NCBI RefSeq assembly: GCF_042660085.1
Contig: NZ_JBHSTI010000008.1
Location: forward strand, 360,001-392,000
DNA: 32,000 nt
Origin: Longivirga aurantiaca
GTDB taxonomy: Bacteria > Actinomycetota > Actinomycetes > S36-B12 > CAIYMF01
Direction of reading: 5' to 3'
In this document: piece by piece, positions 1 to 6,443 of the stretch
Layout: each line of letters begins with the position of its first letter
Numbering within the stretch: position 1 is the stretch's first letter
Made by a program: the position numbers and the translations under genes
Notes under the pieces: generated by a model
Seen by the model: only the letters and a program-made list of their open reading frames with translations
The model's database searches: none
Told to the model about the DNA's origin: nothing

Positions 1-951
1 CTCGCGGCGTCGATGCTCGGCATCTCCGCGACGGTGTTCATGCCGGTGGGCGCGCCGCTGCCGAAGGTGGCTGCGACCCGCGGGTACGGCGCGGAGATCC
101 GCTTCATCGGTACGGCGATCGACGAGTGCCTCGTCGCCGCGCAGGAGTTCGCCGACGAGACGGGCGCGATCCTCATCCACCCGTTCGACCACAAGGACAT
201 CGTCGCGGGGCAGGGCACGGTCGGTCTCGAGATCCTCGAGCAGCGCCCGGACGTGAAGACCATCGTCGTGTGCACCGGCGGCGGAGGCCTGCTCGCCGGG
301 ATCGCCGTGGCGGTCAAGGCAGTTCGGCCCGACGTCCGCATCGTCGGCGTCCAGGCGGCGGGCGCCGCGGCGTACCCCGGCTCGCTCGCCGTGCACCACC
401 CGGTGTCGCTCGCGTCGATGTCGACGATGGCCGACGGAATCGCCGTGGGGCGGCCGGGCGACGTGCCGTTCGCGCTCATCGACGACCTCGTCGACCAGGT
501 GGTGGTCGTCGACGACGAGACGATCGCCCGTGCCCTGGTCCTCACCCTCGAGCGAGGCAAGCTGGTGGTCGAGCCGGCCGGTGCCGCAGGGCTGGCCGCC
601 GTGCTCGACGACCCGGCGGCGTTCGAGCCGCCCGTGGTCGTCGTGGTGTCGGGCGGCAACGTCGACCCGCTGCTGCTGCTGCGGGTGATCCGGCACGGCC
701 TCGCTGCGGCCGGGCGGTACAGCACCCTCACGGTGCGCATGCCCGACCGGCCGGGCTCGCTCGCCTCGCTCCTCGCAGCCCTCGCGGCGGCGGACGCCAA
801 CGTGGTCGAGGTCGAGCACGCGCGGGCCGACCCCAAGCTGCATCTCGACGAGGTGCAGATCGAGGTGCAGGTGGAGACGCGGGGGCCCGAGCACCGGGAC
901 GAGGTCCTGGCCCGGCTCGCCCGGGAGGGGTTCCACGTCACCACCGGATAG
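1..951 (+). CDS. ilvA: Threonine ammonia-lyase (threonine dehydratase), 5'-truncated by the window edge
   Basis: Frame +1 is open from base 1 (track ORF 13..951). It looks like a PLP fold-type II enzyme (GQGTVGLEILEQ, VCTGGGGLLAGIA) with a C-terminal ACT-like regulatory segment (TLTVRMPDRPGSLASLL). The N-terminus lies upstream of the window. Confidence 0.9.
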   Translation, partial: LAASMLGISATVFMPVGAPLPKVAATRGYGAEIRFIGTAIDECLVAAQEFADETGAILIHPFDHKDIVAGQGTVGLEILEQRPDVKTIVVCTGGGGLLAGIAVAVKAVRPDVRIVGVQAAGAAAYPGSLAVHHPVSLASMSTMADGIAVGRPGDVPFALIDDLVDQVVVVDDETIARALVLTLERGKLVVEPAGAAGLAAVLDDPAAFEPPVVVVVSGGNVDPLLLLRVIRHGLAAAGRYSTLTVRMPDRPGSLASLLAALAAADANVVEVEHARADPKLHLDEVQIEVQVETRGPEHRDEVLARLAREGFHVTTG

Positions 952-1022
952 GGCGCACCGGCCGGCTGCGCTGCCGGGCGCCCGCACCCCGTCGGAAGAA
1001 TGCCCGGTGGAGAGATGCGATG

Positions 1023-1069
1023 TACTTTGGCAAGCAGGATTGCCAAAGTAGAAAGAATGGCTTTACAGT
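1023..1069 (+). promoter_or_regulatory. Candidate leaderless promoter (-35 TTGCCA 1040-1045, -10 TACAGT 1064-1069) containing the perfect palindrome TACTTTGGCAA-N6-TTGCCAAAGTA (1023-1050)
   Basis: Read directly. This is a locally AT-richer patch in a GC-rich genome. The -10 matches TANNNT and ends 6 nt before the ATG at 1076, with no Shine-Dalgarno, which fits a leaderless transcript. The right palindrome arm covers the -35. Confidence 0.5.
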
Positions 1070-1075
1070 CGTCTC

Positions 1076-1852
1076 ATGAACGAGGACCTGAACTCCCTGC
1101 GCGACCTGCTCACCCGCGTGGCCTCCGGCGAGGTAGACCCCGCCGAGGCCGCCCGCCTCCTCGACGAGGACCCCTCGGTCCCCACCGTCGACCGCCGCGA
1201 CGACGTGCGCTCCGAGGCGCCCGTGTCCGCCCTGGCCATCCATGCCGGCGGCGTCAAGCTCACCGTCGTCGCCGACCCGACCGTCGCGACGGCAGTCGCC
1301 GACGGACCGCACGCCATCCGGCGCGAGGGCTCGGTCCTCGTGCTCGACGCCCCGAGCGAGGACGGCTACCGCACCACTCCGCCGCCGCGCTTCCTCGGCT
1401 GGGTGCCGGCCGCCTGGACCGGCGGACGCGGCCAGAAGGTGATGGTGCGGGTCAACCCCGCGCTCCCGCTCACCGTCGAGGCGACGGCGTGCTCGGTCGA
1501 CATCACCGGGCTGCGGGCACCGCTCACCCTGGGCGGCAGCGCGTCGGCCGTGAAGGTGCACGACCATGTCGGCGGCCTGCACGGCAGCCTCGCGATGGGC
1601 TCGGCCGAGATCGCCGCGACGGTGACCGAGCCGAGCGACCTCGCCTGCGAGCTCGGGAGCCTCGAGCTGCTGCTCGCTCCGGGCTCGGACGTCACCCTGA
1701 CCGCCACGTGCGACCTCGGCGAGGTGAAGCTGCCGCACGCCGCGTCGCGGGAGGCTGCGTCCGCGCGGCAGACGAGCGTGATCGGGGCCGGCACCCATCC
1801 GTTCACGGTGGCGGTGCGCCTCGGCTCGGCCACGGTGGCGGTGGCGTCGTGA
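1076..1852 (+). CDS. Hypothetical soluble protein: N-terminal SHOCT-like helix plus a beta-strand-repeat (DUF4097/LiaG-like) body
   Basis: 258-aa ORF with high GC3. N-terminus is LTRVASGEVDPAEAARLL. The rest shows alternating short beta-strand periodicity (VKLTVVAD, LTVEATACSVDITG, VTLTATCDLGEVKL, FTVAVRLGSATVAV). No TM helix. The stop overlaps the next gene's GTG (GTGA at 1849-1852). Confidence 0.7.
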   Translation: MNEDLNSLRDLLTRVASGEVDPAEAARLLDEDPSVPTVDRRDDVRSEAPVSALAIHAGGVKLTVVADPTVATAVADGPHAIRREGSVLVLDAPSEDGYRTTPPPRFLGWVPAAWTGGRGQKVMVRVNPALPLTVEATACSVDITGLRAPLTLGGSASAVKVHDHVGGLHGSLAMGSAEIAATVTEPSDLACELGSLELLLAPGSDVTLTATCDLGEVKLPHAASREAASARQTSVIGAGTHPFTVAVRLGSATVAVAS

Positions 1853-2235
1853 CCCCCGTCCCGGACGTCACCCGTCGGCCGCCCCGGGCGTGCCCGGTCT
1901 GCTCGTCCGAGCTGATCATCACCGGCTGCGGCTGCCCCGAGTGCGGCACCGGCATCTCCGGCGAGTTCCGGATGAGCGCGTACGACGCCCTGACCGACGA
2001 CGAGCTCGAGATGCTGCGGGTGTTCCTGGTCAGCCGCGGCAACATGCGCGAGCTGGAGAAGCACCTGGGCGTCTCGTACCCGACCACCCGGCAGCGGTTC
2101 GCCGACCTGCTGGCCAAGCTCGACCTCGAGGACCCTGCCGAGACCAAGAAGTCGGTCGACCGCGACGCCGTGCTCGCCGACGTCGCCGCCGGTCGCCTGT
2201 CGGTCGACGAGGCCGAGAAGCTGCTCACCGACTGA
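1849..2235 (+). CDS. DUF2089-type protein: CxxC...CxxC zinc ribbon, HTH, and a C-terminal SHOCT-like helix
   Basis: The 3' third of track ORF 1000..2235. GTG at 1849 is in frame and overlaps the upstream stop. Motifs: CPVCSSELIITGCGCPECG and LEMLRVFLVSRGNMRELEKHLGVSYPTTRQRF (HTH). The C-terminus is AAGRLSVDEAEKLL. Confidence 0.75.
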   Translation: MTPVPDVTRRPPRACPVCSSELIITGCGCPECGTGISGEFRMSAYDALTDDELEMLRVFLVSRGNMRELEKHLGVSYPTTRQRFADLLAKLDLEDPAETKKSVDRDAVLADVAAGRLSVDEAEKLLTD

Positions 2236-2239
2236 GCGT

Positions 2240-2260
2240 CCGGGGTGCCCGGCACCCTGG
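2240..2260 (+). terminator. Short GC hairpin (CCGGGGTGC-ccg-GCACCCTGG) 5 nt after the DUF2089 stop; possible terminator or attenuator
   Basis: 9-bp stem including one G.U pair, read directly. There is no U-tract, which is common in high-GC actinobacteria. A second hairpin lies at 2297-2325 (CACGGGTT-N13-AACCCGTG). Confidence 0.35.
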
Positions 2261-2359
2261 ACCTTCACGCGACGTCAACCGTCACGCTCGTTCCGGCACG
2301 GGTTCCGCGAGGGGCGAAACCCGTGTGCGCGCACCACCATCGAGGGGAAGGCTCTGCCC

Positions 2360-3379
<1,020 letters not shown>

Positions 3380-3380
3380 G

Positions 3381-4241
3381 ATGGCTGCCACCACCGCCCC
3401 GACCCCGGTCCCCACCGAGCTCACGCGGCCCGGCATCGGCTGGTTCCTGCACGACGGGATCGTGGTCGCCAAGCGCAACCTCATCCAGGCGCTGCGGGTG
3501 CCCGAGAGCATCTTCTTCTCGCTCGTGCAGCCGGTGATCTTCGTCTTCATGTTCGCCTACGTGTTCGGCGGCGCGATCCCCATCCCTGGCGATGCCGCCG
3601 CCGACGCCTACCGGCAGTACCTGATCCCGGGCATCTTCGGGCAGACCGTCGCGTTCGCGGCCGCGGCGTCCACCGTCGGGCTCGCCGACGACCTCCACAA
3701 GGGCATCGTCGACCGCTTCCGCTCGCTGCCGATGGCGGCGTCCGCCGTGCTCTTCGGACGGACGGCGGCCGACGCGCTCCAGCAGATCGCGGTGCTCGTG
3801 GTGCTCTCGATCACCGGCTTCATCGTCGGATGGCGCATCGAGAACGGCCTCTGGAACGCGGCGCTGGCCTACCTGCTGCTCCTGCTCTTCGCCTACACCG
3901 TGGCGTGGGTCGGCGCCTGGGTCGGCCTGCACATGCCCAACCCGCAGACCGCGAGCACCGCAGGGCTGATCTGGCTGTTCCCGCTCACCTTCCTGTCGAA
4001 CGCCTTCGTGCCTCTGGCCGGCATGCCGCCCGTCGTGCAGACGATCGCGGAGTGGAACCCGGTGTCGTCGCTCGTGCTCGCCTGCCGCGAGCTGTTCGGC
4101 AACCCGACCGGCCTCGTGCCCCAGCTCGAGTCGGCGGCGTGGCCGATGCAGAACCCCGTCGCCTACACGCTGATCTCGTGCACGGTCGTGATCGCGGTCT
4201 TCAGCGTCCTCGCCGTCCGCAAGTACCGCGCGACCAGCTGA
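3381..4241 (+). CDS. ABC-2 type transporter permease (DrrB-like)
   Basis: ATG at 3381 follows the ATPase stop directly (TGAGATG) and has an AGGAGG upstream. The protein has six predicted hydrophobic spans typical of ABC-2 permeases. Confidence 0.88.
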   Translation: MAATTAPTPVPTELTRPGIGWFLHDGIVVAKRNLIQALRVPESIFFSLVQPVIFVFMFAYVFGGAIPIPGDAAADAYRQYLIPGIFGQTVAFAAAASTVGLADDLHKGIVDRFRSLPMAASAVLFGRTAADALQQIAVLVVLSITGFIVGWRIENGLWNAALAYLLLLLFAYTVAWVGAWVGLHMPNPQTASTAGLIWLFPLTFLSNAFVPLAGMPPVVQTIAEWNPVSSLVLACRELFGNPTGLVPQLESAAWPMQNPVAYTLISCTVVIAVFSVLAVRKYRATS

Positions 4242-4248
4242 CGACGCA

Positions 4249-4282
4249 CGAAGGCCCGGCACCTCGAGGTGCCGGGCCTTCG
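4249..4282. terminator. Bidirectional intrinsic terminator hairpin between the permease (+) and greA (-)
   Basis: Perfect 15-bp stem CGAAGGCCCGGCACC-tcga-GGTGCCGGGCCTTCG between convergent genes. Confidence 0.8.
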
Positions 4283-4297
4283 TCGTACGCGGGGCGC

Positions 4298-4789
4298 CTA
4301 TCCGGTGTAGGGCTCGGCCTTCAGGATCTCGACGTTGAGCGTCTTGCCCGCCGGAGTCGTGTAGCTGACGGACGTGCCGACCTTCCGTCCGAGCACCGCA
4401 GCACCGAGCGGCGAGGTGGGGGAGTAGACCGAGATGGAGGCGGTGGCGGCCTCCTCGCGCGAGCCGAGCAGGAAGGTCTCCTCCTCGTTGAACTCCACGA
4501 GGCGCACCGTGACGACCTGGCCCTGCGCGACCTCGCCCTCGGTGGCCGGAGGGGCGCCGATCTTCGCGTTCTCGAGCAGGTGGGTCAGCACCTTCACGCG
4601 GGCCTCGTTCTTGCCCTGCTCCTCCTTGGCCGCGTGGTAGCCGCCGTTCTCCTTGAGGTCGCCCTCCTCGCGCGCGGCCTCGATGCGCTTCACGATCTGC
4701 GCACGACGCGGTCCCGACCGGTCGGCGAGCTCCTCCTGGAGGCGCTCGAAGGCCTCCTGGGTCAGCCAGGTCTCGGTCGTCTGGGTCAC
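4298..4789 (-). CDS. greA: Transcription elongation factor GreA
   Basis: 163 aa. WLTQEAFERLQEEL, the LKENGGYHAAKEEQ coiled-coil tip and the C-terminal FKBP-like domain are all classic GreA. GTG start. Confidence 0.95.
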   Translation of the reverse strand: MTQTTETWLTQEAFERLQEELADRSGPRRAQIVKRIEAAREEGDLKENGGYHAAKEEQGKNEARVKVLTHLLENAKIGAPPATEGEVAQGQVVTVRLVEFNEEETFLLGSREEAATASISVYSPTSPLGAAVLGRKVGTSVSYTTPAGKTLNVEILKAEPYTG

Positions 4790-5453: not shown

Positions 5454-6443
5454 GTGTCCCTCACCCGGACCGAACCGCCACGACCAGGAGCGACCGTGAC
5501 CGCTGCACCCCACCTGCCGGGGCCGGGCGAGCCCCTGCGCCTCATGGCGGTGCACGCCCACCCCGACGACGAGTCGAGCAAGGGGGCCGCGTCCGCCGCG
5601 CGGTACGTCGCCGAGGGCGTCGAGGTCCTGGTGGTCACGTGCACCGGCGGCGAGCGCGGCGACGTGCTCAACCCGAGCCTGGCGCACGACCCTGCTGTGC
5701 TCGCCGACCTCGCGGCCTACCGCCGCACCGAGATGGCGCGCGCCGCGGAGATCCTGGGCGTGCAGCAGACCTGGCTGGGCTTCCACGATTCCGGCCTCCC
5801 CGAGGCCGACGAGGACGGCGTCGTCCCCCCGCTGCCCGAGGGCTGCTTCGCGCTCGTCCCGCTCGACGAGGCGACCGAGCCGCTGGTGCGCCTCGTGCGC
5901 GAGTTCCGCCCGCACGTGCTGACGACGTACGACGAGAACGGCGGCTACCCGCACCCCGACCACATCAAGACGCACGAGATCTCGATGCGCGCGTTCGAGG
6001 CGGCCGGCGACCCCGAGCAGTTCCCCGGCACGGGCGAGCCGTGGCAGCCGGCCAAGCTCTACTACCACCTGACCTTCCACAAGGCCCGGCTCGTCGCGCT
6101 GCACGAGATGTGCCTCGCCGAGGGCATCGACTCGCCGTTCGCCGACTGGCTCGCGGGCTGGGAGGACAAGCCGGAGGACGCCGCCCGGCTCACGACGCAG
6201 GTGGAGTGCGCAGCCTGGTTCGAGGCGCGCGACGAGGCGCTCAAGGCGCACGCCACGCAGATCGACCCCGACGGCCGCTGGTTCGCTGTCCCCATGGACG
6301 CGCAGCGCGCCGCCTGGCCCACCGAGGACTACCAGCTCGCGCGGTCGCTCGTCCCTGTCGGCGAGGGGATCGAGGACGACCTGTTCGCGGGCGTCCGGCC
6401 CGAGGCCCAGTCCGACTCCTCCGAGATCACGAGGTCCGCGTGA
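5454..6443 (+). CDS. mca: Mycothiol S-conjugate amidase (LmbE/PIG-L family)
   Basis: LRLMAVHAHPDDESSKGA...VVTCTGGERGDVLNP closely resembles M. tuberculosis Mca. The greA-adjacent position favours Mca over its paralogue MshB. The true start may be the GTG at 5496. Confidence 0.85.
   Translation: MSLTRTEPPRPGATVTAAPHLPGPGEPLRLMAVHAHPDDESSKGAASAARYVAEGVEVLVVTCTGGERGDVLNPSLAHDPAVLADLAAYRRTEMARAAEILGVQQTWLGFHDSGLPEADEDGVVPPLPEGCFALVPLDEATEPLVRLVREFRPHVLTTYDENGGYPHPDHIKTHEISMRAFEAAGDPEQFPGTGEPWQPAKLYYHLTFHKARLVALHEMCLAEGIDSPFADWLAGWEDKPEDAARLTTQVECAAWFEARDEALKAHATQIDPDGRWFAVPMDAQRAAWPTEDYQLARSLVPVGEGIEDDLFAGVRPEAQSDSSEITRSA

Follow-up and report, generated by a model that had tools for sequence, protein, structure and literature searches.

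Two adjacent genes, referred to here as ORF1 and ORF2, occupy positions 1076 to 2235 of a 32,000-nucleotide (nt) stretch of the Longivirga aurantiaca genome (contig NZ_JBHSTI010000008.1, positions 360,001 to 392,000 of the forward strand; the whole of this stretch is referred to as the window). They form a real, tightly coupled two-gene unit, and their products are a predicted soluble protein with an N-terminal SHOCT-like helical hairpin and a Toastrack-type beta-helix, and a DUF2089 protein with a zinc ribbon, a helix-turn-helix (HTH) domain and a C-terminal SHOCT-like hairpin. The best explanation of the locus, to which we give a probability of about one half, is a self-contained, autoregulated two-gene signalling module. 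Sequence comparisons place the pair as a minimal two-gene, all-soluble, Toastrack-first actinobacterial version of a kind of system known from prediction only, with a leaderless promoter and a candidate operator.

The stop codon of ORF1 and the start codon of ORF2 share the sequence GTGA, and the coordinates and frames agree with the proposal of translational coupling made in an initial annotation of this DNA. The overlap is kept among related loci, with ATGA, GTGA or TGATG stop/start overlaps in 38 of 53, and in 48 of the 53 the genes are no more than 8 nt apart. ORF1-family and DUF2089 genes are near-obligate neighbours. A DUF2089 gene lies directly downstream on the same strand in 55 of the 57 loci fetched with the ORF1 profile, a set reaching as far as Dormibacterota and Chloroflexota, whose loci show 28% ORF1 identity. 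When 201 evenly sampled genomes of the class Actinomycetes were scored for DUF2089 matches above the cut-off and for strong ORF1-family matches, 32 had a DUF2089 gene, 32 had a strong ORF1-family gene, and 30 had both, adjacent and on the same strand (30/32 in each direction); related genomes in these counts are not independent. The exceptions are a contig end (G022), genome G043 and two genomes with a variant gene order (G098 and G163). Such co-occurrence is far beyond chance, no characterised family claims either protein, and the idea advanced initially, of a sensor or scaffold partnered with a DNA-binding protein, is contradicted on neither count. The pair recurs in three neighbourhoods, the first with ilvA, drrAB and greA, the second with Acyl_transf_3 and WS-DGAT genes, and the third with metallophosphoesterase and MFS_3 genes.

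The two proteins carry the same kind of hairpin at opposite ends. The motifs quoted in the initial annotation are present at ORF1 residues 16-29 and ORF2 residues 113-126, and alignment of the ORF1 N-terminal profile with the DUF2089 C-terminal profile using hhalign gives a probability of 95-96% (P 5e-8 to 1e-9, over 21-26 columns). On this profile evidence the likeness of the two motifs is therefore real homology, with both probably belonging to the same Pfam family, PF22746 (SHOCT-like_DUF2089-C). Each hairpin of the pair itself scores below the family threshold of 27 bits, with 13.4 bits (E 0.061) for ORF1 residues 11-30 and 15.1 bits (E 0.018) for ORF2 residues 108-126; matches at E<0.01 are found in 24 of 40 distant ORF1-family members (best 3e-7) and in 4 of 22 DUF2089 homologues. 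The variant pair of genome G098 (L062:1909-2985), and likewise that of G163, belongs to another actinobacterial family and begins with a ribbon-less DUF2089 protein of 120 amino acids, and the partner, of 144-165 amino acids, has an N-terminal PF22746 match above threshold (42.6 bits) followed by an unassigned, non-Toastrack body. Judged from these matches the hairpin, not the body, is therefore the constant feature of DUF2089 partners. This agrees with the gene order 'DUF2089 -> SHOCT-like+X', the second of the example contexts given by Ravi et al. 2024 (mSystems, PMC11237479); the pair in the window has the components and the same-strand adjacency of that context in reversed order, X being the Toastrack upstream.

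The ORF1-family profile also matches the N-terminus of LarB (PDB 7mj0 and 8soq, residues 4-52) at E 0.0014, in the region corresponding to ORF1 residues 6-30 (nt 1091-1165). LarB is pyridinium-3,5-biscarboxylic acid mononucleotide synthase, and its crystal structure may already hold a SHOCT-like hairpin of the ORF1 type.

No significant Pfam domain was found in ORF1, and its close homologues carry no Pfam annotation. PF13349 (DUF4097) does not match ORF1 at E<1, and a six-frame search of the whole genome with this model is likewise empty. With the ORF1-family profile, built from 22 homologues, 2,923 cluster representatives are found at E<=1e-3, of which 251 reach E<=1e-30. PF13349 is matched by 9 of 40 distant members (best 4.9e-5), a set of 40 whose E-values against the family profile are all 1e-38 or lower. 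The AlphaFold2 (AF2) model of ORF1, with a predicted local distance difference test (pLDDT) score of 85, has helices at residues 3-17 and 22-30, a disordered linker and an all-beta body. The top Foldseek match in the PDB is 4qrk (E 3e-7, probability 1.0, with moderate TM-scores of 0.45/0.52), and the next are 4ygu, 3lyc, 3jx8, 3pet, 3ljy and 4opw, all of them DUF4097/DUF2807 'putative adhesin' structures; 4QRK and 4OPW are Toastrack exemplars in the paper that defines this domain, which covers DUF4097, DUF2154 and DUF2807 (Ravi et al. 2024, PMC11237479). No beta-helix relative was found when ORF1-family profiles were compared with PDB sequences. ORF1 has no transmembrane segment by hydropathy (maximum Kyte-Doolittle mean over 19 residues of 1.42), its N-terminus being the polar helix hairpin, and the NCBIfam LiaG model (NF049997) matches residues 141-252 weakly, at 18.1 bits versus a cut-off of 285. 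Because of the family-profile matches, the AF2 and Foldseek results and the lack of a transmembrane segment, ORF1 is, by prediction, a soluble SHOCT-like plus Toastrack protein whose divergence puts it beyond the reach of the Pfam model, as its first description as a soluble DUF4097/LiaG-like beta-helix had suggested. Two database entries in which the ORF1 family appears to be fused to another protein were rejected: P0237, with DUF2089, is a frameshift artefact with an out-of-frame middle section, and P0238, with a major facilitator superfamily (MFS) protein, is a chimera, and neither provides Rosetta-stone evidence.

The genome, of 3.67 Mb, has a single DUF2089 gene, that of ORF2. The protein matches Zn_ribbon_DUF2089 (PF22747; E 1.6e-10, 41.4 bits versus a cut-off of 27.6) and DUF2089-HTH (PF09862; E 1e-15, 57.5 bits versus 33.4), so that the CxxC...CxxC ribbon and the HTH noted initially are both confirmed as Pfam domains above cut-off. 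The ribbon cysteines C15, C18, C29 and C32 do not vary among the 22 homologues compared, which come from Actinomycetota, Dormibacterota and Chloroflexota, and the same holds for the recognition helix V75-S-Y-P-T79 and residues R81 and R83. In the AF2 model (pLDDT 81) a beta ribbon is followed by a helical HTH core at residues 44-90 and then by two terminal helices, and Foldseek relates the core to VraR, LiaR, DosR, GerE and sigma region 4 with probabilities of 0.96-0.99 and weak E-values; the DUF2089 profile has only insignificant matches to PDB sequences. The core (residues ~44-90) shares its four-helix HTH fold with the GerE/LuxR-family domains of these proteins and with sigma-70 region 4, although the sequence matches are insignificant (E 0.06-0.9). 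Unlike the LiaR-type regulators, ORF2 has no receiver domain, and its HTH is flanked by the zinc ribbon and the SHOCT-like hairpin. A GerE-like assignment of the DUF2089 HTH was also made by Ravi et al. 2024 (PMC11237479). Most DUF2089 homologues of this clade have an extra pair of cysteines right after the ribbon (consensus R-M-C-x-Y-C), and in ORF2 and its closest relatives these are replaced by Ser and Asp at residues 43 and 46 (nt 1975-1986); the lineage of ORF2 has possibly lost a second metal site.

The only sigma-70-like promoter site within positions 900-4400 lies immediately upstream of ORF1. The -10 box ends 6 nt ahead of the ORF1 ATG and there is no Shine-Dalgarno sequence upstream of this codon, which implies that ORF1 is translated from a leaderless mRNA. 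The -35 hexamer is the central hexamer of a three-part element with the consensus TRGMAA-N6-TTGCCA-N3-TRGMAA. In about 50 related loci a -10 box (TACAGT, TACTAT or TCTAAT) is found 6-7 nt before the ATG, and the upstream regions, aligned on the ATG or on the -35, have TTGCCA or TTGACA as the -35, with TRGMAA 3 nt downstream and TRGMAA 6-7 nt upstream. Many of these loci have the perfect palindrome TTGCCA-N3-TGGCAA, 32 of 50 keep the upstream hexamer without a mismatch, and the self-complementarity of the -35 and the downstream hexamer averages 3.78/6 as compared to 1.46/6 for 681 control TTG sites. The same geometry is shared by four lineage groups with an ORF1 identity of only 28-40%, Dormibacterota and Chloroflexota among them.

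The full element is present as a single copy, and nowhere else in the genome does a site come within 2 mismatches of the 18 defined positions; three one-mismatch sites for the core are found elsewhere, none of them in a convincing promoter context. The conservation of the element across phyla, taken with the invariant recognition helix, points to the DUF2089 protein as the binder and to autoregulation, and given its uniqueness in the genome the three-hexamer element is a probable operator for the DUF2089 protein. Dimeric binding to palindromes or inverted repeats is characteristic of GerE/LuxR-type HTH domains, and the palindromic element upstream of ORF1 agrees with this. As a true operator, the element would give the DUF2089 family its first defined DNA target, conserved from Actinomycetota to Chloroflexota and Dormibacterota; it is absent from the description by Ravi et al. 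(PMC11237479). An intergenic one-mismatch copy of the core, TTGCCCTCTTAGCAA, is located outside the window at C8:1024709, between two same-strand ORFs, and could be a weak second site or a chance occurrence. A sigma-54 promoter reading of TGGCAA...TTGC was rejected, the GG-to-GC spacing being ~14 nt and not 12 and a normal -35/-10 pair fitting the site; Actinomycetota generally lack rpoN. An Rfam scan of positions 900-2500 returned only a meaningless sub-threshold microRNA match. The features of the locus are listed in Table 1.

Table 1. Features of the ORF1-ORF2 locus and its surroundings, in positions of the window.
Feature	Position	Strand	Basis or remark
ilvA, 3' part (threonine ammonia-lyase)	13-951		upstream of ORF1
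Perfect 11-bp inverted repeat	1023-1050		covers -35
Candidate operator, three hexamers	1028-1054	+	TGGCAA (1028-1033), N6, TTGCCA (1040-1045), N3, TAGAAA (1049-1054)
Sigma-70-like promoter	1040-1069	+	-35 TTGCCA (1040-1045), 18-nt spacer, -10 TACAGT (1064-1069)
ORF1	1076-1852	+	258 amino acids, ATG start
Predicted SHOCT-like two-helix module of ORF1	residues ~3-30, nt 1082-1165	+	AF2, family profile
Predicted disordered linker of ORF1	residues 31-50	+	AF2
Predicted Toastrack-type beta-helix of ORF1	residues ~52-256, nt 1229-1843	+	AF2, Foldseek
ORF2	1849-2235	+	128 amino acids, GTG start
Zinc ribbon of ORF2	residues 15-43, nt 1891-1977	+	Pfam
GerE/LuxR-type HTH of ORF2	residues 48-93, nt 1990-2127	+	Pfam, Foldseek
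Predicted SHOCT-like hairpin of ORF2	residues ~105-127, nt 2161-2229	+	sub-threshold Pfam, AF2
ORF2-drrA spacer	2233-2325	+	two hairpins, 2233-2267 and 2297-2325
drrA, DrrA-type ATP-binding cassette (ABC) ATPase	2360-3379	+	TIGR01188 above cut-off
drrB, DrrB-like ABC-2 permease	3381-4241	+	DrrB families below cut-off; Pfam
greA	4298-4789	-	convergent, downstream of drrB
mca	5454-6443		downstream of the pair

We infer the following circuit, including the binder of the element, the sign of regulation, the contact between the two proteins and the signal. Transcription would begin at or next to the ORF1 ATG to give a leaderless mRNA, from a near-consensus promoter whose -35 serves as the central half-site, and ORF2 would be translated by coupling to ORF1, such that both proteins are made together. 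The DUF2089 protein would probably bind the three-hexamer element as a dimer via its GerE/LuxR-type recognition helix and, with its site overlapping both the -35 and the spacer, would most likely repress its own operon. With no other copy of the element in the genome, regulation would chiefly concern the SHOCT-like-Toastrack protein, along with downstream genes reached by read-through (here drrAB). The Toastrack protein would then feed back on the regulator, either through contact of the SHOCT-like hairpins or through co-recruitment to the same site, with a probably envelope-proximal signal changing the DNA binding of the DUF2089 protein. Such a circuit would be a kinase-free analogue of PspF/PspA or Lia logic. 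A stricter, one-step form of it, in which the soluble Toastrack is both the sole regulated effector and a direct SHOCT-SHOCT anti-factor of the GerE-type regulator, and the element is the first defined target of the DUF2089 family, is put forward only tentatively; if true, it would make the whole DUF2089/SHOCT-like class directly testable with two proteins and one promoter.

Several observations weigh against an autoregulated module. The complete genome G043 has a gene for a 318-amino-acid SHOCT-like plus Toastrack protein (L059:2936-3892) beside greA and mca and has no DUF2089 gene anywhere; with the ORF1-family gene kept at the same site, the Toastrack partner can evidently persist, or function, alone. 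Constraints on the promoter, or the binding of another factor, could account for part of the hexamer conservation, and the position of the upstream palindrome, with its centre around -40, is also compatible with class II activation, so that binding may activate and not repress. The shared helix may be a hetero-oligomerisation handle, as the initial annotation suggests, but self-oligomerisation found no support in the only published experiment on a canonical SHOCT domain (PMC3581485). The two proteins are acidic, with net charges of -11 and -7, which disfavours simple electrostatic binding to the membrane.

The closest published parallels are gene contexts from the computational work of Ravi et al. 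2024 (PMC11237479), who defined Toastrack, split DUF2089 into zinc ribbon, HTH and SHOCT-like parts, and proposed a Lia-like membrane-proximal signalling. Their first example is a four-gene context of a sigma factor, a zf-HC2 anti-sigma receptor, a membrane-anchored Toastrack and DUF2089. The pair in the window resembles these contexts in its association with Toastrack, in the presence of a zinc ribbon, a DUF2089 (GerE-like) HTH and a predicted SHOCT-like part beside a partner that itself bears a predicted SHOCT-like domain, and in the Lia-like, membrane-proximal signalling role proposed for it. It differs in having only two genes, with the Toastrack gene first (the reversed order), a soluble Toastrack, and no sigma or anti-sigma gene among the identified genes flanking the pair. 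The statement in the initial annotation that neither family has an established function is correct as regards experiments, with no experimental work on DUF2089 found in the literature searched, but the association of DUF2089 with Toastrack and with 'SHOCT-like+X' had already been published in 2024 (PMC11237479). DUF2089, Toastrack and SHOCT-like domains are widespread, and this actinobacterial pair is the simplest form seen. As such, it offers a compact, testable model for the DNA target of DUF2089, for SHOCT-like hairpins as protein handles or membrane tags, and for the role of Toastrack.

ORF1 shares the Toastrack beta-helix with LiaG of the Lia system, to which the weak NCBIfam match noted above also relates it, but it has no membrane anchor and scores far under the LiaG cut-off. 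No LiaRS two-component system or PspC gene is found nearby, the neighbours of the pair (ilvA, drrAB, greA and mca) include no histidine kinase or response regulator, and the regulator is a one-component protein with a zinc ribbon and an HTH. The Bacillus subtilis protein CAB15517.1, which we take to be YvlB, resembles ORF1 in having a Toastrack beta-helix, and it also has N-terminal SHOCT-like helices. This protein has been implicated in liaFSR activation and in protection against membrane permeabilisation (PMC11237479). The resemblance to PspF-PspA lies in the proposed logic only, with a transcription factor made alongside a non-enzymatic scaffold that would be its main regulated product and probably its modulator as well; homology is absent, PspF being a sigma-54 AAA+ activator and PspA an ESCRT-III-like helical protein.

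The genes downstream suggest a different role, in which the pair would be a dedicated sensor and regulator of the adjacent DrrAB-type ABC-2 exporter, in a Bce- or Lia-like manner, sensing a membrane-active compound and turning on efflux, with the exporter as the true output; we consider this unlikely. The block ilvA-pair-drrA-drrB-greA(-)-mca is kept across many Actinomycetes families at 26-39% ORF1 identity, with drrAB adjacent to the pair and on the same strand in 15 of 20 sampled Actinomycetes loci that carry it, and drrA abuts or overlaps the DUF2089 stop codon in four loci, although this synteny is inherited and the counts are not independent. The exporter also occurs without the pair at the ilvA-greA site, in 17 of 40 pair-less genomes sampled (others have neither), and the pair occurs without drrAB in L002, G062, G135, G113 and G151. 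Four states of this site are thus seen, ilvA-greA, ilvA-drrAB-greA, ilvA-pair-greA and ilvA-pair-drrAB-greA. Both elements occur without each other at one site, and by this comparison of gene orders they are therefore gained and lost independently, the exporter being a frequent but optional neighbour, which should temper annotations of the pair as an 'efflux regulator'. The interval between ilvA and greA (952-4297) is a hot spot for insertion and deletion across Actinomycetes.

Transporters of other kinds, or in other settings, are also found with these families. In Dormibacterota and Chloroflexota the gene downstream of the pair encodes an MFS_3 exporter, the flank of a Streptomyces biosynthetic cluster contains DrrAB, two DUF2089 proteins and a 254-amino-acid DUF1707 protein (PMC11007384), leaderless-bacteriocin loci list a DUF2089 gene along with ABC transporter genes, and Toastrack is reported from actinobacterial transport operons (Ravi et al., PMC11237479). 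These favour a link to export, but a third lineage group has no transporter beside the pair, only Acyl_transf_3 and WS/DGAT, the genome-wide search for the element found no operator-like site ahead of drrA, and in the window ORF2 and drrA are separated by two hairpins and a gap of 124 nt.

A module regulating itself remains our preferred reading of the pair, and a second alternative concerns how its two hairpins would be used. Instead of binding the other, each could target a common third site, such as the inner leaflet of the membrane or another partner, with the transcription factor being co-localised there or sequestered from DNA. A role as inner-leaflet anchors for a variety of domains has been proposed for SHOCT-like domains (Ravi et al. 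2024, PMC11237479), the failure of a canonical SHOCT domain to self-associate (PMC3581485) is readily accommodated, three of the four helices in the two hairpins are amphipathic (hydrophobic moment 0.51-0.57), and the module is also present on unrelated proteins, e.g. at the N-terminus of LarB. The hairpins contain few basic residues, however, in two strongly acidic proteins, the minimal two-gene version includes no gene for a transmembrane partner, and the strict 1:1 pairing with translational coupling better fits a stoichiometric complex; we regard targeting of a third site as doubtful. A selfish or defence module of toxin-antitoxin type, with a small autoregulating HTH protein and an effector, would be in keeping with the translational coupling of a small HTH protein to a larger partner, the apparent autoregulation and the patchy spread of DUF2089 (32 of the 201 genomes), but is very improbable given that a search of PADLOC-DB gave no match for ORF1 and only a Csa3 HTH at E 0.031 for ORF2, that the pair is single-copy at one conserved ilvA-greA site across many families, indicating long vertical inheritance and not mobility, that no toxic activity is known for Toastrack, and that the HTH gene is second and not first.

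The gap between ORF2 and drrA contains two inverted repeats with no T-tract, and neither a canonical terminator nor an Rfam match was found in this spacer. The predicted hairpins are possible terminators, attenuators or sites for another regulator, and drrAB is possibly influenced by read-through across them. In relatives the spacer ranges from direct abutment to 453 nt, and parts of the first hairpin (CTGGACC...GTCAACC) recur in close relatives.

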